Source of the DNA: an uncultured cyanobacterium
GTDB taxonomy: Bacteria; Cyanobacteriota; Cyanobacteriia; Cyanobacteriales; Nostocaceae
Assembly: GCA_963706595.1 (NCBI GenBank)
Contig: OY970166.1
Location: forward strand, 4,352,001-4,416,000
Length of the DNA stretch: 64,000 bases
Direction: 5' to 3'
A program made the translations under genes and the position numbers. The notes below the pieces were generated by a model. That model ran no database searches and was not told where the DNA came from. It saw only the letters and a list, made by a program, of their open reading frames with translations. Below are positions 76 through 11,994 of this stretch, in pieces. The first letter of the stretch is position 1; each line of letters begins with the position of its first letter.

Positions 76-1299
76 TCATACATCTTCCTCAATTACTGCT
101 AATACGGCTTTTGGTAATAACTTATCTTTAAACCAGACAATTTTGGCGGGGACATTATCTAATTTTACTCCAGCTTTTTCTAAGTTTAATCTTTCGGAAA
201 TAGCTAAAATTAAATTGTCACATCCAGAACTACGCACTTGATAAAATTTCTTTTGCAAATATTCTGGTCGCCAATAACCAACTATTTCTAATAAATAGTC
301 TCTCCCATCAGGATGGACTAACCGAAAATCGGGAATCATCACACTACCAGGAACGGGTAATAAATCCACTTCTCGCTCTAATACCCAATCTGTTTTAAGT
401 GCATCCCATTTATCGGCAAAGGATGACTCTAGCATACTATCGTAAGGCTTACCCTTGGAATAGTGAGACACTAAACCACATTCAGAATTGAGGGTAAATC
501 TTCCCGTGTTCCATGCTTTGGTGTAAGGATCACGAGTTTGCAACGTCGCGGAAAGACTCCATTTAGTGACATGAAGTAAAGCCGGAATTAATTTGGCGAT
601 CGCTAGCCCATATCTTGTACTAGGATTAAATAAACTCGTCGGTCCATCAACGGTAATTGTAAACCCGTGGTCAGCATCACCTTCAATATAAGCCATTAAT
701 TGAAACAACTTCAAATAACGAAACAACAGCTTATATTCCCCTGGAACATTACGATGAGCATTTAAAATTAACTTACTGGCTTTATAAAAAATTCCCTGTA
801 CCTGAGACAAATTATATCTATTTAATAAATCCACCGGACTCGGCGCATCAAAATTAGTTAAAATCTTATTTTCAGCCAAATCAGCATATAAACCATCGCG
901 TACCTGTTCCAACAACACCTCACGTTCCAATTCCTGACTCAACTCATCAGCAATCTTCGTTAAAGTCACCTGAGTAGACTCCCCACTAGGAACCGACTTC
1001 GCCGCCAAAGCAAACACCCGTTCCCGTAACATAGGCGGTTCCAAAGGACTCACCACCTCAAAAGTGCAGAAACTACTCTTGAGAATATAAGCCAAACCCC
1101 GCTTCACCCGATAATCAGTAGCATCACCCTCCAAATCTAAAAGCTGACGTTCCAACACCCCCTGAGTCTTCCCTTTCGCCTCCTCAAAACAACCAATCAA
1201 CTCATTCCCCAAATCCAAAGTTTTCTGATCAATCTTCAACCTCTTCGGAATTATTTCCTCTCCGTTTTGGCGATGACTGAGTAAATCCGTCGGTAACAT
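76..1299 (-). CDS. DUF790 family (Bax1-like) endonuclease
   Basis: 407 aa ORF; C-terminal PD-(D/E)xK-like segment IPDFRLVHPDGRDYLLEIVGYW typical of DUF790; overlaps the upstream XPB-like helicase by 71 nt. Confidence 0.85.
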   Translation of the reverse strand: MLPTDLLSHRQNGEEIIPKRLKIDQKTLDLGNELIGCFEEAKGKTQGVLERQLLDLEGDATDYRVKRGLAYILKSSFCTFEVVSPLEPPMLRERVFALAAKSVPSGESTQVTLTKIADELSQELEREVLLEQVRDGLYADLAENKILTNFDAPSPVDLLNRYNLSQVQGIFYKASKLILNAHRNVPGEYKLLFRYLKLFQLMAYIEGDADHGFTITVDGPTSLFNPSTRYGLAIAKLIPALLHVTKWSLSATLQTRDPYTKAWNTGRFTLNSECGLVSHYSKGKPYDSMLESSFADKWDALKTDWVLEREVDLLPVPGSVMIPDFRLVHPDGRDYLLEIVGYWRPEYLQKKFYQVRSSGCDNLILAISERLNLEKAGVKLDNVPAKIVWFKDKLLPKAVLAVIEEDV

Positions 1300-2803
1300 T
1301 GTTCTTATCCGTTGAATACTTAATCTCTACCTGTTCCGCAGCTTTAGGAGTACTACCCTTCCCACCCCCATAAACAACCTGCAAATTCCCCCTCTTTTCT
1401 TGGCGACCTTGGCGACTTGGCGGTTCGTTACTCCTCTCTTCCCCCCTACGTCGCGCCGAAGTCCCCTCCTCACTAGTATCCTCAGCCACCACCTCATATA
1501 AAATCGCCCGCTTATTAGCCACATTCCCCTTTCTCAACACCCGACCCAAACGCTGAACATACTCCCTAGTCGAACCAGTCCCCGACAAAATAATCGCCAC
1601 AGAAGCAGCAGGAACATCAACCCCCTCATTCAACACATGAGAAGCCACCAAAGTATTGTATTCCCCCTCCCGAAACTTAGTTAAAATTTCATGACGTTCC
1701 TTCACAGGAGTTTGATGAGTAATCGCCGGAATTAATAACTTTTCAGAAATACTATAAACCGTCGCATTATCAGCCGTAAAAATGAGAATCCTTTCCGGAA
1801 AATGTTCCGCCAATAAATTAGCTAAAATCCTTAACTTACCATCAGTACCCAAGGCGATGTTTTTCGCTTCCCGGTGTGCTAACATAGCCCTACGTCCAGC
1901 AGGCGATCGCGCACTCATTTTCACAAACATTTGCCAACCTTGAATACTCCCCAAAGAAATCTTTGATTGGCGCAAAAAATCATTGCGAGTTTGAATTAAT
2001 TGATTGTATCTCTCTCGCTCATTCTGTGATAACTTCACCTTAATTTGGACAATTTCATGGTTAGCTAAAGCACTTCCCGCTAAATCCTCAGCGCGTTTGC
2101 GATAGACTTCCGGTCCAATGAGAATATTTAAATCTGCGTGTTTCCCATCAGTGCGTTCTGGTGTTGCTGATAATCCTAAACGATAAGGTGCGATCGCATA
2201 CTCTGCAATTACCCGTCCAAAATCCGTAGGTAAATGATGACATTCATCAAACACCAGCAAAGCATACTTATTTCCCAAGCTTTCCGCATGAATAGCCGCA
2301 CTATCATAAGTCGCCACTAATATTGCAGTGCGATCGCGTGAACCACCACCCAACAAACCCACCTCAGCATCAGGAAAAGCCGCCACCAAATGAGCATACC
2401 ATTGATGCATCAAATCCAAAGTTGGAACCACAATTAAAGTAGTGCGGGGTGTAGATTGCATCGCCATTTGCGCCAAATAAGTCTTTCCCGCCGCAGTAGG
2501 TAACACCACAACCCCCTGTCTTCCCTCCAACTTCCAAGCTGCTAACGCCTCAACTTGGTGGGGGTAAGGCTCCATTTCCATACTCGGAATTAAATCCACC
2601 GGATAAAATTCCTTAGCCTCATCCACAAAATCAACATCTTCAGCTTGTAGTGCTTCCACCAAAGCCCGATATCTCATGGCGGGAATGCGAAACTTCTCCA
2701 CCCGATCATCCCAAGTAGCATAATCCATCCAACCCTTACCCCGTGGCGGTGGATGTAAAATTAATGTACCGCGATCAAATTTTAAGGTGGGTGTGCGAGC
2801 CAT
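1229..2803 (-). CDS. XPB/Rad25-like SF2 DEAD/DEAH helicase
   Basis: Walker A LPTAAGKT, DECHH, GLSATPER, NEGVDVP, QRLGRVLR motifs. Confidence 0.9.
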   Translation of the reverse strand: MARTPTLKFDRGTLILHPPPRGKGWMDYATWDDRVEKFRIPAMRYRALVEALQAEDVDFVDEAKEFYPVDLIPSMEMEPYPHQVEALAAWKLEGRQGVVVLPTAAGKTYLAQMAMQSTPRTTLIVVPTLDLMHQWYAHLVAAFPDAEVGLLGGGSRDRTAILVATYDSAAIHAESLGNKYALLVFDECHHLPTDFGRVIAEYAIAPYRLGLSATPERTDGKHADLNILIGPEVYRKRAEDLAGSALANHEIVQIKVKLSQNERERYNQLIQTRNDFLRQSKISLGSIQGWQMFVKMSARSPAGRRAMLAHREAKNIALGTDGKLRILANLLAEHFPERILIFTADNATVYSISEKLLIPAITHQTPVKERHEILTKFREGEYNTLVASHVLNEGVDVPAASVAIILSGTGSTREYVQRLGRVLRKGNVANKRAILYEVVAEDTSEEGTSARRRGEERSNEPPSRQGRQEKRGNLQVVYGGGKGSTPKAAEQVEIKYSTDKNNVTDGFTQSSPKRRGNNSEEVED

Positions 2804-2925
2804 TTAGGGATTTTCCAGAGATATATTTAGAAAAAAAATTGTCAAATATTTGGATATATATAATATAGGATTTTCGGCGATTTATTCAGGTTTATTCACA
2901 AGTAAAAATTGCTGATAATAACTTT

Positions 2926-3648
2926 TCACGAATACTTCCCAAGAGATAAAGTTTGAATAAAAGTACGAGATTCAGGAACATGGTAAAAAATTCTGCCTAT
3001 ACTTTCCATTGTTATAAAATCTAATGCTTTGCTCTGAAGGTCTTCTTCTCGAAGAGTTTGAAGATTCGTAGTACCGTAAAGTAATTGTTTTAATTCTCCT
3101 GGTTTCTTCCCTGGTTTTCTGCCAATTAAGTCTTTTGCAGCAGCGATAAATATCTCAGTTGAGGGAAATGTCACAAGCGGAATTACCACAGGTAAGTATT
3201 CGTGGGTGTAACCTTCTCGTGCCTTCGCTCCATAAAATGTTTCTATTCCTCCTACTAATATTTTAGATATACTGAATCTCCAATCCTTAAAGTAGTCATC
3301 AGGCGTAGTAAGCGTATGTTCACTATCAGCCGTGAGTAGTATGATATCCCGGTTACTAACTTCCGTAACTTCTTTTTCAAATTCTGCAAAAGCACCGTAA
3401 AGAGTATTGGTAACTGATCTTCTAAATTCAGCAGCTTGTTCACCTGTTAAATAGCAACCACTATTTAATTTTATAACTTCTCTACAATATTTTTCTACTG
3501 GATCATGCAGTGTTTGCCTTTTTAATTCAAAATAGTTAAGAGTCACATTATTTTCATAACCATTAGATAGAATACATTCAGAAATTTTTCTAAAAATTGC
3601 CCTATCAGTAGCTCCATCTCCAATAATCCCTATATTTCTCTCTGGCAT
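2926..3648 (-). CDS. Hypothetical protein, probable TOPRIM-like (DUF4276-like) partner of the adjacent ATPase
   Basis: 240 aa ORF; IGIIGDGATDRAIF (variant of hhVEGxxD), LTADSE, STEIFI; starts 14 nt after the ATPase stop. Confidence 0.5.
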   Translation of the reverse strand: MPERNIGIIGDGATDRAIFRKISECILSNGYENNVTLNYFELKRQTLHDPVEKYCREVIKLNSGCYLTGEQAAEFRRSVTNTLYGAFAEFEKEVTEVSNRDIILLTADSEHTLTTPDDYFKDWRFSISKILVGGIETFYGAKAREGYTHEYLPVVIPLVTFPSTEIFIAAAKDLIGRKPGKKPGELKQLLYGTTNLQTLREEDLQSKALDFITMESIGRIFYHVPESRTFIQTLSLGKYS

Positions 3649-3662
3649 TACATTTTACCCAA

Positions 3663-4919
3663 TTACCCAATTGTCCCGGAGTACCAAAGTTCTGCTAATT
3701 GATACTTTGGTATTTGTACTATCCGTTTCCCTGTAGTTTCATCATCTATTATCTCACCTTCTACAGTACCTATACCGACAAGTGTTTCCAGAGATGTATT
3801 TAGATTTCTGACATCACTTGTTCTATTACGTTTTTCTAAACGAACTGTATAAACATGATCTAAGTAATTATGAAATTCACGTAAGACAGAGGGACTATGA
3901 GAAGTAATAATAAATTGAGATGTATATCCTTCTGAAGTTGGAGATGTCATTTGCCAAATCCAATGCATTAGTTCTTGAATATTCCCAGGATTTACACCAT
4001 TTTCAATTTCTTCTAAAAGTATCAAACTTGGTGGTCTATAAAGAGAAGCTAGAAGACTAATAGCCGCCGCTTTCATAAATCCATCTGAAACCGAATCTGG
4101 AGTGAACTCCTCTACAGTTGTTTTTCTGCCAAAATCGAACTCCCAAACCAGTTTAGAAATCTTCTCATTATAGCGAACACCTTGAAAATTATTTTCAAAT
4201 CTCCTCATTAAAGCTGTAAATCTTGTAAATGTCCGTTCCTCTTTTTCTTTAATATATTTAACAACTGCTTGCAATCCCAGCCCTGTACTACCTAATTCAG
4301 CAGGAATTTTAATATAATCACTTTTTCCTATTTCATGAGGAGAATCATCAAGATTCCCCATTTGCTCATCTTTAACTAAACCTTTGAGAAAAGCAGGTTG
4401 AAAATGATAACTATATGTATTTGCAAAATCCCCAAAAAACTCTTTACACAATTGTTTTTCTGCTGTTTGCAAAGATGCATTGTCTTCAAGGTCTTGCCTT
4501 AAAGCCATTAAGTTAGTTGACTGGTCATGTCCACTGGTAATTATCTTTTCATCTGCACTATCTAGCCTTATTGTTATTTTTTCTTTGCAGCTAGCAGATT
4601 CTGGAAAATGCCTATTTTCATATAATTCCATTTCATAGATAATACTTCCCTTTAAGTTATTCCAAGTTATTATAAATCCCATTGGTTCATGATCAGCAGC
4701 TAGCCTATAACGATGAGGATATAAATCTCTATGAACATTAACTGTTTTATTAATATTTCCAGGACGACCTCTTCTTACTAGCCTACAAAAGTGTTGTATC
4801 CCTGTTAAAAGGTTAGACTTGCCTGAATTATTATTACCAATCAGCAAGGTTACTGGATGAAGCTGTACAGTAGTCAGTTTATGTGTTTTAAAGTTTTTAA
4901 GTGTAACTTGTTTAAACAT
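3663..4919 (-). CDS. AAA_21/AAA_15-type ABC ATPase
   Basis: N-terminal LKNFKT, Walker A GNNNSGKS, signature VSDG, Walker B LILLEEIENG, H-loop ITSHSP. Confidence 0.85.
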   Translation of the reverse strand: MFKQVTLKNFKTHKLTTVQLHPVTLLIGNNNSGKSNLLTGIQHFCRLVRRGRPGNINKTVNVHRDLYPHRYRLAADHEPMGFIITWNNLKGSIIYEMELYENRHFPESASCKEKITIRLDSADEKIITSGHDQSTNLMALRQDLEDNASLQTAEKQLCKEFFGDFANTYSYHFQPAFLKGLVKDEQMGNLDDSPHEIGKSDYIKIPAELGSTGLGLQAVVKYIKEKEERTFTRFTALMRRFENNFQGVRYNEKISKLVWEFDFGRKTTVEEFTPDSVSDGFMKAAAISLLASLYRPPSLILLEEIENGVNPGNIQELMHWIWQMTSPTSEGYTSQFIITSHSPSVLREFHNYLDHVYTVRLEKRNRTSDVRNLNTSLETLVGIGTVEGEIIDDETTGKRIVQIPKYQLAELWYSGTIG

Positions 4920-8023: not shown

Positions 8024-8030
8024 AAATTTT

Positions 8031-8137
8031 GGCGTTGCTAATTTGATCATGAATTGAGATTTTTGTAATCTGCCTCAAGGTAGACTTTGCGAGCCTGAGA
8101 GCAAAATAGCACAATTCCTACGATCAATCAGCAACGC
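8031..8137. mobile_element. MITE-like element (GGCGTTGCT...AGCAACGC ends)
   Basis: Imperfect terminal inverted repeats; same end family as 23688-23799 and 27979-28041. Confidence 0.5.
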
Positions 8138-8773
8138 TCTTTTTGAACATTTTTGACTTGAGATACCTATTGCTAAAGGCTATTTAGCGAATGTGAATGG
8201 TTAATAATTATAGTTAGCTGACAAATCAGGTAGCGCGATCGCCCTACTTGTTACTTAACTTATTATAAAAATTAAAAAATCTTTTAATCATAAACCCTTA
8301 GTCTTTTACTTGGTTTTTCTTTAATCAAATAACACACAATCTTCACAAACCCAGAATTATTTATTTAGTCTATTTCTCCGAAAAATTGCCGTGTAATTCA
8401 TGTTGCTTGTAAATTTGAGAAATTTGGTAATTTAACTTTACTTTGTAATTTTTACATAAAGTTCCGGGTTACTACTGGCAAAACACTCAAGTAAACAGTA
8501 TGGTGTAAAAGTGAACTTACGAAGTATTGCTTAGTAAAATAAGCCATTAGTGTACTCGCTGAAGTTCAAGCCTCGCTAGTGCTGGAAAAAGTCATAAAAA
8601 TGCCTGATTTTTAGGTATTTACCACACTTAAGTATCTGCGATCGCGGCAAAAGTTGGATTTACGGACTGTCGTCACAAAAAACTTGAGTACGATTTTAAA
8701 CTTCTCAAGAATCTGACGACATGGATTTCAGAACATCTCAGTAATAACAGTTACAATAGGAGACATCACATCA

Positions 8774-9967
8774 ATGCTGAATTCCAAAAAAAACTTGTCT
8801 CAATTGGCAGCACGTGCTGCTGTATGTTCATTCGCAATAGCTGGAATATTCGTCCCATCGGCAGCTCGTGCGGCCAGCTTAGTCACAGGTTTTACTCCTT
8901 CGGGCGGTGCAGTTGAACCCGGTAACTATGACGTATTTTTAGATGCTGGTGACCCACTACACATAGATGTGACTGTAACCGTCCCCGCAACACCTTCCAA
9001 ACTGGACTTATTCCTACTGGAAGACCTGTCTGGTTCATTTGGGGATGATCTTAATGTAATCAAGACTTTAGTACCAAATTTAGTCACTTCCATCACAGGT
9101 ATTGTGTCTGATACCTTCTTTGGTGTTGGCTCTTATGTTGACAAACCAATTTCCCCATTTGGTTTTTCTGGTGACTATGTATATAGAACCGACTTAGCTC
9201 TGACTGCTGACACAGGTTTACTGCAAACGACTGTCAATGGACTCACCATTAGAAATGGTGGCGATTTCCCTGAATCACAACTAGAAGCACTGTTACAAAC
9301 AGCAGTTCGCGCTACTGGTGAAGTTGGCTTCCGGAATGATGCCTTTAAGGTTGTGGTTTTATCTACAGATGCTACTTACCACAAAGCTGGTGATTTTGCC
9401 TCTAGACCTCCAAATGACGGAGATGCCATTCTTGATGGTAGTCCAGAAGGAACTGGTGAAGATTATCCCAGCATTGCTCAGGTAAAAAATGCCTTACAGG
9501 CTGCTAACATTATCCCCATCTTTGCAGTCACAACCAATGTCATATCTACCTATGAAGATTTGGTAGCTCAGTTAGGATTTGGTTCAGTAGTCCAACTGTC
9601 AAGTAATAGTTCTAATTTGGTAACTGCAATCACCAGTGGTTTATCAGATGTTTTCAGAGACATCACTCTGAATGTAGAAGGTGATGATTTTGGTTACGTC
9701 CAGAGTATTACTCCTGGTGTATTTACAGATGTACCAGAAGGAGACAGCAGAACCTTCAAGGTAGAATTACTCGCTGATGGTGTTGATGATGCCAACGATA
9801 CTCTGAGTTTAGTTGCTCCTGGATTCGGAACAACATTGGTTAACGTTACTGTCAGTGATACAACCTCTGTACCCGAACCAACCACTATGTTGGGTCTGTT
9901 GGCATTCGGTGCTGTTGGGGCTTCCACCGCATTGAAACGTAAACAAAAAGCTGTCGCTACAGTGTAA
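8774..9967 (+). CDS. PEP-CTERM surface protein with integrin-beta-like VWA (beta-I) domain
   Basis: Signal peptide; MIDAS DLSGS followed by DD, GSYVDK, DFPES, STDA, DYPSI; C-terminal VPEPTT + TM + KRKQK. Confidence 0.85.
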   Translation: MLNSKKNLSQLAARAAVCSFAIAGIFVPSAARAASLVTGFTPSGGAVEPGNYDVFLDAGDPLHIDVTVTVPATPSKLDLFLLEDLSGSFGDDLNVIKTLVPNLVTSITGIVSDTFFGVGSYVDKPISPFGFSGDYVYRTDLALTADTGLLQTTVNGLTIRNGGDFPESQLEALLQTAVRATGEVGFRNDAFKVVVLSTDATYHKAGDFASRPPNDGDAILDGSPEGTGEDYPSIAQVKNALQAANIIPIFAVTTNVISTYEDLVAQLGFGSVVQLSSNSSNLVTAITSGLSDVFRDITLNVEGDDFGYVQSITPGVFTDVPEGDSRTFKVELLADGVDDANDTLSLVAPGFGTTLVNVTVSDTTSVPEPTTMLGLLAFGAVGASTALKRKQKAVATV

Positions 9968-9991
9968 AACATCACTTATATATTTAGTAAC

Positions 9992-10028
9992 TGCTGTGTT
10001 TTCTGTTGAAAGACACGGCAATTTTTTT
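9992..10028 (+). terminator. Rho-independent terminator
   Basis: Stem tgctgtgttttc/gaaagacacggca followed by a T-tract, just after the PEP-CTERM gene. Confidence 0.65.
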
Positions 10029-10206
10029 ATGTTGAGATTTGCCGAAATCGGGGCATGATATCATGCCCGCCTAATTAGCGCTCTTTTATGACTCTGATGA
10101 AAGAAAAGATGTAGCTTGCTTCCCCCCACTCCCCACTCCCCACTCCCTTTTTTAAGGAATTACTAAGACAGTTGTGTACCCCTCCGGTGCTAGAGTGTAA
10201 GATGAC

Positions 10207-10386
10207 CGAGAATAACGGGATACAAGCCCAGTCCTTCTACGGCTTTCTGGTAAAATCGGAATATAGTCGCCTTATGGCATGGGGAGACTTTAAACGGACG
10301 TGGAGGGATGGTAAGACTATCTTGGGAGCATCAACCCGAAGAAGCGTCAAGGAATCCTCGGACTTTAGGACGAGGAGGTATGTCAA
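10207..10386 (+). mobile_element. Non-autonomous IS200/IS605-family mini-element (PATE-like) with probable TnpB omega-RNA scaffold
   Basis: TGAC just outside the left end; CAAG before a left hairpin; right end GAAT-CCTCG..CGAGG-..TCAA (IS608-type architecture); no transposase ORF. Confidence 0.75.
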
Positions 10387-10422
10387 ATTGCATAATCTTA
10401 TGTCTTCCCAGACCCTATCTGA

Positions 10423-11895
<1,473 letters not shown>

Positions 11896-11898
<3 letters not shown>

Positions 11899-11931
11899 TC
11901 ATTAGTCATTAGTCATGGGTCATTAGTCATT
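11896..11931 (+). repeat. STRR heptamer repeat (TAGTCAT)n
   Basis: About 5 tandem copies, one variant, between atpD and atpC. Confidence 0.8.
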
Positions 11932-11994
11932 AATGTAATTACTTAATGACTAGTGACAAATTATCAAAAATCACAGACAAAGGACAAAGGACAA

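Follow-up and report, generated by a model that had tools for sequence, protein, structure and literature searches.

A predicted minimal integrin beta headpiece with a PEP-CTERM tail at an exchangeable surface-display locus of a cyanobacterium

Why does a cyanobacterium carry a gene whose product resembles the head of integrin beta, what could such a protein do, and where does the resemblance come from? The gene lies in a 64,000-nucleotide stretch of DNA (the window) from an uncultured member of the Nostocaceae and encodes a protein of 397 residues (Table 1). It is present in a single copy in the genome. An earlier note, made from the sequence alone, had read the protein as a homologue of the integrin betaI domain, displayed as a PEP-CTERM surface protein. 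It had proposed a metal-dependent adhesin relevant to the origin of integrins or to gene transfer between eukaryotes and bacteria.

Table 1. Features of the gene and its surroundings (positions in the window; residues refer to the 397-residue protein).
Feature	Positions	Strand	Basis or remark
Left slot boundary: gene with PLD domain and helix-hairpin-helix	6395..8023	+	Pfam, congener comparison
Upstream non-coding stretch	8320..8520	+	Common to both PEP-CTERM genes at the same slot in congener G318
Gene of the 397-residue protein	8774..9967	+	Signal peptide, hybrid domain with inserted betaI domain (predicted), PEP-CTERM tail
Likely Sec signal peptide, residues 1-33	8774..8872	+	Judged by eye; pLDDT <50 at residues 1-31
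Hybrid (Ig-like) domain, N-terminal strands, residues 34-75	8873..8998	+	Strands 36-41, 51-56 and 62-69; structure and profile alignment with the hybrid domain of integrins
Integrin betaI (VWA) domain, residues 76-296	8999..9661	+	Pfam, PDB sequence matches, model
Hybrid domain, C-terminal strands, residues 297-363	9662..9862	+	Model, structure alignment, profile alignment
PEP-CTERM sorting signal of cyanobacterial type, made up of VPEP, a hydrophobic helix and a basic tail	9869..9964	+	Pfam and NCBIfam
Terminator-like hairpin, then T run	9992..10020	+	3' arm conserved behind both G318 passengers
Right slot boundary: ATP synthase beta subunit gene	10450..11898	+	Congener comparison

Domain layout, fold and metal sites

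The integrin motifs quoted in the earlier note are all found in the translation. It contains DLSGSFGDD (residues 84-92), YVDK (121-124), NGGDFPESQ (161-169), STDA (197-200), HKAGDFASRPPNDG (203-216), EDYPS (229-233), LSSNSSN (275-281) and VPEP (366-369). Pfam places Integrin_beta (PF00362) on residues 77-290 with 133 bits (E 1.9e-38, cut-off 24.8), against 55.5 bits for vWA_SIBA-E and 14 bits for VWA_4. Integrin_beta outscores the VWA families; therefore a better score for ordinary VWA domains, the outcome that the earlier note had set against its own claim, was not found. A PDB sequence search matched 60 sequences, each of them an integrin beta chain or the domain of Pactolus, which is beta-2-like.

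The predicted fold points the same way. An AlphaFold2 model (41 sequences in the alignment, mean pLDDT 87) has three strands, then a Rossmann-type domain, then four more strands. Compared with 48,161 chains, the model matches beta-7 best (9p96_B; Z 34.8, rmsd 4.6, 321 residues, range 35-361). The top eight matches are integrin beta or Pactolus chains, with Z falling from 34.8 to 19.6, and the best non-integrin chain reaches Z 16.6. Taken separately, the betaI part aligns with the beta-6 head 5ffg_B (Z 31.4, rmsd 1.5, 219 residues), and the hybrid part aligns with 2p26_A, a beta-2 fragment without betaI (Z 14.2, rmsd 1.8, 109 residues, model range 32-363). Foldseek, which the earlier note had suggested as a check, also assigns the predicted model to integrin beta. 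Its best fit is to one open integrin (TM 0.70, rmsd 3.9), and its worst fits are to other extended or ligand-bound ones (rmsd 8.4-9.6), a pattern that favours neither the open nor the closed conformation.

Generic VWA identity can be rejected on the Pfam scores and the structure ranking. A profile of 41 close homologues aligns to residues 73-419 of beta-2 in a single continuous alignment (186 bits). Because strands of the hybrid domain flank betaI in both the model and the profile alignment, the protein is predicted to be a minimal integrin beta headpiece, a hybrid domain into which betaI is inserted. The layout given in the earlier note was thus correct for betaI and the PEP-CTERM tail, but overlooked the hybrid domain around betaI (residues ~36-72 and 297-363).

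The two ends of the chain suggest export and sorting. By eye, the signal peptide has a basic N-terminus, a hydrophobic stretch and A-x-A at residues 31-33. At the other end the chain finishes with the PEP-CTERM signal (residue 397), which scores above the cut-off both in Pfam (21.5 bits) and as NCBIfam TIGR04155 cyano_PEP (23.5 bits), in line with the predicted surface display. The genome has two matches to the exosortase family PF09721 and 13 PEP-CTERM-like open reading frames, counted by sequence pattern. In all this the protein resembles the cyanobacterial PEP-CTERM/cyanoexosortase system (TIGR04155; CrtB of Nostoc punctiforme, accessible text of PMC12188702): signal peptide, tail and exosortase genes are there. 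It differs in its passenger, since PEP-CTERM passengers mostly have no known domain and this one is an integrin head. The word "integrin" is absent from the main text of that paper.

With metazoan integrin beta headpieces (beta-7 9p96_B, beta-6 4um9_B, beta-2 9t5z_B) the protein shares fold, topology, homology in both domains, MIDAS and ADMIDAS. In contrast to them it has no beta-tail, and Pfam finds no match to PSI, to the EGF stalk or to the integrin transmembrane helix with its NPxY tail. The last Cys stands at residue 18 or before, so that the mature part is cysteine-free. The earlier note was right that both the Cys-bridged loop and the EGF legs are absent. An alpha chain is not linked to the gene, and the sequence has no RGD, KGD or LDV motif that could serve as self-ligand. 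The protein belongs to the betaI domain family and to the PEP-CTERM proteins; it is not an integrin beta subunit.

We assigned the metal sites from residues only, using the consensus quoted in the accessible text of 10.1101/2020.04.29.069435 together with PDB and family alignments. All MIDAS residues (D84, S86, S88, E167, D199) and all ADMIDAS residues (S88, D91, D92, D199) are present, as the earlier note had stated. The third site, SyMBS, keeps D123, D164, P166 and E167, but its Asn position is Gly162, and by sequence it is not intact. Across 324 bacterial domains (duplicates included) D84 is conserved in 319, S88 in 322, E167 and D199 in all 324, D92 in 319 and D123 in 323. The Asn position is Gly in 316 of them, and position 86 is Thr instead of Ser in 55. 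Given the Thr in some relatives and the change from Asn to Gly, the three-metal geometry may differ from that of integrins. In solved integrins Mg2+ sits at MIDAS and Ca2+ at the flanking sites, and ligand binding is coupled to the hybrid domain (accessible text of PMC3317794).

The loops differ more than the metal sites. A specificity loop closed by two Cys is found in 18 of 20 animal domains and in none of 284 matched core bacterial domains; the 397-residue protein lacks it as well. The loop behind HxAGD is eight residues long in 19 of 20 animal and 126 of 265 matched bacterial domains, and five in our protein. In integrins a Lys or Arg in this loop enters the alpha propeller. The alpha-binding loop of the cyanobacterial protein has no Lys at that position, and AGDG-Lys/Arg is kept in 16 of 297 unique core bacterial domains. 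Other motifs that face the alpha subunit in integrins are common in the same 297 domains (HxAGD in 251, DYP in 295). The earlier note had overlooked both the shortened alpha-binding loop and the altered SyMBS. One betaI domain, from a Rubrivivax metagenome-assembled genome (L200), has the same eight-residue loop sequence behind HxAGD as an animal integrin beta (locus L022).

The bacterial family and the origin of the integrin beta head

A protein of this kind was already known from Trichodesmium erythraeum, and the earlier note, correct about homology to integrins, had missed it. The Trichodesmium sequence is homologous to over 450 integrin beta residues, including the betaA domain, and has no EGF or transmembrane parts; bacterial integrin-type propellers are described as well (accessible text of PMC3192720). 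It is 54% identical to our protein over 208 betaI columns. Hybrid flanks stand on both sides of its betaI domain, and it too lacks EGF legs and an integrin tail. Trichodesmium-type proteins differ in that they keep the full AGDG-Lys loop and have close relatives with cadherin-like repeats, whereas the 397-residue protein consists of head and PEP-CTERM tail only, with a shortened loop. CglD of Myxococcus xanthus and SibA-E of Dictyostelium are likewise exported VWA/MIDAS proteins that have been likened to integrin beta. Unlike them (CglD was compared by description), our protein scores far better with Integrin_beta than with vWA_SIBA-E and combines a hybrid domain with loops specific to integrins. 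The accessible text of 10.1101/2020.04.29.069435 describes the three cation motifs as absent from Sib proteins.

The nearest relatives of the 397-residue protein are cyanobacterial PEP-CTERM proteins with 55-93% identity; the closest named ones are from Nostoc and Halotia (66-73%). About 30 relatives have full length and the same architecture, and one orthologue is 93% identical. A homologue search at near-length gave 114 matches, of which 110 bear betaI and 34 of these are PEP-CTERM-like. Among longer proteins the search gave 272 matches, with RTX repeats in 100 of the 120 listed. Besides RTX-repeat proteins, cadherin-like proteins and Calx-beta proteins carry the same betaI domain. In a scan of GTDB, 217 of 327 pattern matches were relatives, and the 78 loci kept from it come from cyanobacteria, alpha-, beta- and gammaproteobacteria and Myxococcota. 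Some bacterial members are already auto-labelled as integrin beta VWA proteins in databases. A hybrid flank is detectable in 123 of the 324 bacterial domains, and therefore the hinge is dispensable in the family.

A deeper group stands behind this core. The search with one divergent member returned 1,249 representatives with E no higher than 0.001, some of which may be eukaryotic integrins. The best 150 of these representatives belong mostly to a deeper group with a short loop. Named members come from Desulfurobacterium and Ectothiorhodospiraceae. The model of the Desulfurobacterium member (pLDDT 89) is hybrid plus betaI and matches beta-6 with Z 24.9 over 307 residues. For 71 of 148 divergent proteins no domain passed the length filter.

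Several side observations concern family members. The deeper group (P0111, P0386, P0235-P0382) is large, divergent and prokaryotic, and its betaI is often fused behind subtilase or other domains. Two betaI domains occur in one chain in the bacterial proteins P0115-P0119, P0255 and P0272. In the gregarine apicomplexans Porospora and Polyplicarium two proteins have tandem betaI domains of bacterial type (dataset entries P0279, P0334 and P0385); the word "integrin" is absent from those papers on gregarine genomes that a literature search listed. In one Mastigocoleus assembly two contigs carry one and the same PEP-CTERM betaI locus with identical neighbours (L132 and L168), by duplication or assembly redundancy.

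Some members combine betaI with a propeller in one chain. Among the 120 long homologues listed, 25 have a full N-terminal propeller and two a truncated one, as counted with a profile built from those 25. In these proteins the propeller is followed by RTX repeats, betaI and more RTX repeats. They form one proteobacterial family with 51-73% identity to its first member, and 12 of the 90 loci that were scanned have it (P0160, P0198 and related proteins; loci L179, L182, L183, L189, L191, L193, L198, L202, L205, L207, L208 and L209). The propeller has seven DxNxDGxxD/E repeats (FG-GAP), and its 32 matches in the PDB, of modest E-value, are without exception integrin alpha chains. In the Asticcacaulis protein P0160 propeller and betaI take up residues ~24-492 and ~1114-1338. 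Such a chain may be a single-chain integrin head. Yet propeller and betaI are ~600 residues apart, the loop mostly lacks Lys and RTX proteins are mosaic, so that it may also be one chance fusion.

Where, then, does the integrin beta head come from? A recent transfer from an animal is rejected: the nearest relatives are bacterial and GC3 is host-like. The transfer between eukaryotes and bacteria raised by the earlier note is not supported in this recent form, given 55-93% identity to cyanobacterial PEP-CTERM proteins, when the identity of core bacterial to animal domains has a median of 32%. The relevance to integrin origin is real, but it comes through the whole family and not through this gene alone. 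Eukaryotic contamination is rejected too, as the gene lies in a 5.57 Mb single-contig genome between genes common to congeners.

The careful tree has 47 rows and 208 columns, with 10 generic VWA sequences as outgroup and 8 animal domains; rows were picked, with identity thresholds, out of 421 domains plus 25 outgroup sequences. A search for protist integrins yielded none for the tree: a motif scan led to animal-type loci, and a search among long proteins listed 120 animal-type proteins, mostly beta-4. In the maximum-likelihood tree the animal domains lie inside the bacterial core (83/87, 86/82) beside Trichodesmium (88/61), with none of these branches starred. Among 200 bootstrap trees, the share in which a single branch sets the bacterial core apart is 0%. 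The phylogeny that the earlier note had called for thus nests animals in the core, but a placement of animals as the first branch is not rejected by an AU test on a quick tree (p = 0.379). In a FastTree without outgroup 43 of 78 inner branches are open. The SyMBS position points the same way as the tree: Gly is found in 24 of 25 outgroup VWA domains, 63 of 63 domains of the deep group and 276 of 291 core domains. Animals have Asn there, in 20 of 20 domains of one set and in 113 of 120 of another. Together these data lend modest support to animal betaI being nested in bacteria, in a tree that holds no protist integrins. According to the accessible text of 10.1101/2020.04.29.069435, amoebozoan type II integrins are placed between Trichodesmium and Didymoeca.

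Two origins have to be weighed, and we regard them as about evenly balanced. The first has close to an even chance: an ancient eukaryotic integrin beta head entered bacteria once, lost the Cys loop and spread as an adhesin module. The accessible text of 10.1101/2023.10.19.562135 treats the Trichodesmium integrin beta as the lone prokaryotic detection and attributes it to horizontal transfer. The few AGDG-Lys/Arg loops and the many loops of animal length fit a relic of alpha binding, and the AU test leaves animals-first standing. The animal stem is long (0.8), and with a tree without protist integrins the nesting may be an artefact. Against such a transfer stand the nesting itself with the bootstrap split of the core, and the hybrid-plus-betaI fold without the long loop in the divergent prokaryotic group. 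Furthermore, with Gly in bacteria and outgroup and Asn in animals, an animal-type donor would require reversion to the outgroup state.

The second origin, which we propose tentatively and hold somewhat less probable in its full stepwise form, is that bacteria invented the integrin beta headpiece as an adhesin module, complete with MIDAS, ADMIDAS and the loop that was to bind the alpha subunit in later times. It would have arisen stepwise, from generic VWA through the deep short-loop hybrid-betaI family to the long-loop family; eukaryotes would have taken it from the latter, and the SyMBS Asn, the Cys loop and the legs would be their additions. The propeller-betaI chain may then be a single-chain head, and the 397-residue protein the smallest soluble, alpha-free model of betaI-hybrid allostery.

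An exchangeable slot upstream of the ATP synthase gene

The gene of the 397-residue protein is missing from all ten congeners, and the betaI family is found in 21 of 401 genomes of the phylum. What stands in its place? In seven of the ten congeners one to three other PEP-CTERM genes lie directly upstream of the right-hand boundary gene, which we take to be atpD. Congener G318 has two choice-of-anchor L PEP-CTERM genes (assigned by profile) with a similar upstream stretch, tail and terminator arm, that is, a PEP-CTERM tail like that of our protein on unrelated passengers. Genes that resemble choice-of-anchor L are also found in G402, G403 and G404, NIDO in G403 and G406, DUF1194 in G405 and an unnamed passenger in G408. 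G407 has a DUF29 gene instead of a PEP-CTERM gene. In G376 the flanks are ~43 kb apart, and no PEP-CTERM gene was found in the stretches read (all but 4.5 kb). In G401 the flanks are on different contigs, and the side read, that of the ATP synthase gene, has no PEP-CTERM gene. Hence at the same locus the gene is replaced by unrelated passengers in congeners, and the slot is the setting of an exchangeable surface-display cassette. The conserved upstream stretch is possibly a regulatory region; no sigma-70-like site was found upstream of the gene.

Some further features of the window were noted. The slot (8024-10449; loci L129 and L243-L250) is hypervariable in the genus, with tandem arrays and passengers that include nidogen-like NIDO and VWA-like DUF1194. 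A non-coding element of ~190 bases at 10203-10388 has eight further copies in the genome (77-87% identity over 149-213 bases), five shorter matches in the genome and copies in congeners; its end presumably resembles an IS200/IS605 remnant. A short repeat just behind the ATP synthase gene (11890-11960) has dozens of matches in two congeners, and we take it to be a short tandem repeat family of filamentous cyanobacteria. On the minus strand at 76-4919 GC is low (0.33-0.38) at an ATPase gene and the unnamed open reading frame that follows. This region presumably also holds a DUF790-like gene with a helicase-like partner.

Predicted function and what it means

We predict that the 397-residue protein is probably a monomeric, Mg/Ca-dependent surface adhesin. 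By analogy with PEP-CTERM biology it would be exported by Sec, cleaved by exosortase and attached to the outer surface or to exopolysaccharide. By analogy with integrin structures Mg2+ would bind at MIDAS, its shell completed by Asp or Glu of a protein or by uronic acid of the sheath, and Ca2+ at ADMIDAS together with the hybrid hinge could tune affinity, possibly under tension. The head would act without a partner at the surface or sheath of the cell. Both the Cys loop and the loop that bears Lys/Arg are lost, which suggests that there is no alpha-type partner. The metal residues are conserved family-wide on carriers of several kinds, and PEP-CTERM-type loci examined contain no propeller gene. 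The integrin fold of the model, the exosortase genes and the exchangeable slot fit the prediction as well, and in Nostoc punctiforme exosortase is required for motility, biofilm formation and adhesion to polysaccharide (accessible text of PMC12188702). The changes at SyMBS and position 86, and a hybrid flank found only in part of the family, weaken the prediction. So do the alpha-facing motifs HxAGD and DYP, for which a monomer has no obvious need, and an unlinked FG-GAP repeat protein encoded in the genome.

It is less probable, indeed unlikely, that the protein is a structural calcium-binding part of the coat or a variable shield against phages or grazers, with a MIDAS that has no specific ligand. 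Slot passengers turn over quickly among congeners, as under diversifying pressure, and acidic residues prevail in the mature part (33 Asp and 11 Glu versus 14 Lys/Arg). PEP-CTERM proteins stabilise polysaccharide on the cell surface (accessible text of PMC12188702). However, MIDAS and ADMIDAS are near-invariant across different carriers, which argues for a working ligand site.

Less probable still, and very unlikely in our view, is a heterodimer in which the protein is one half of an integrin-like pair and the FG-GAP propeller protein encoded elsewhere is the other. Of 16 FG-GAP matches in the genome, 13 fall in a single frame of 1359 codons, and the conserved alpha-facing motifs as well as the propeller-betaI chains of proteobacteria would fit a pair. 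But the FG-GAP gene is 2.6 Mb away, FG-GAP matches also occur in 3 of 14 control genomes, and the Cys loop is missing and the alpha-binding loop short. Moreover, no conserved partner gene was found beside the PEP-CTERM-type betaI loci, two of which duplicate others; shared neighbours are confined to copies of one genome or evident close kin. The FG-GAP protein (G000:C1:1754774-1758905, outside the window) has one extra match in a short frame beside the long one, possibly the sign of a break at the protein's start.

The least probable reading is a silent or neutral passenger of recent acquisition: the gene's absence from congeners and the family's rarity in the phylum would fit, but the frame is intact, about 30 relatives and a 93% identical orthologue keep the architecture, and the GC3 value of 0.31 is no outlier beside those of six nearby genes (0.26-0.45). 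The best sequencing-run shares for the locus (0.29 and 0.21) are both from DNA, and the one RNA run at 0.08 is no evidence of expression.

For the monomeric adhesin, what would be new beyond the Trichodesmium type is the minimal PEP-CTERM form, the swappable locus, the breadth of the family and the propeller chain. No description of any of these was found in a literature search that had subscription journals mostly outside its reach.

In the papers cited here the integrin beta of cyanobacteria figures as an isolated oddity due to horizontal transfer. With hundreds of bacterial members, a deeper prokaryotic sister group of the same two-domain fold and chains with both head domains, phylogeny and structure can put the origin of integrins to a direct test. 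The cysteine-free headpiece of 330 residues should be expressible in E. coli and would show whether metal-linked switching between betaI and hybrid domain takes place without an alpha subunit. For cyanobacteria, it is one of few PEP-CTERM passengers with a clear mechanistic hypothesis, and it stands at a locus where domains of adhesin type are swapped.
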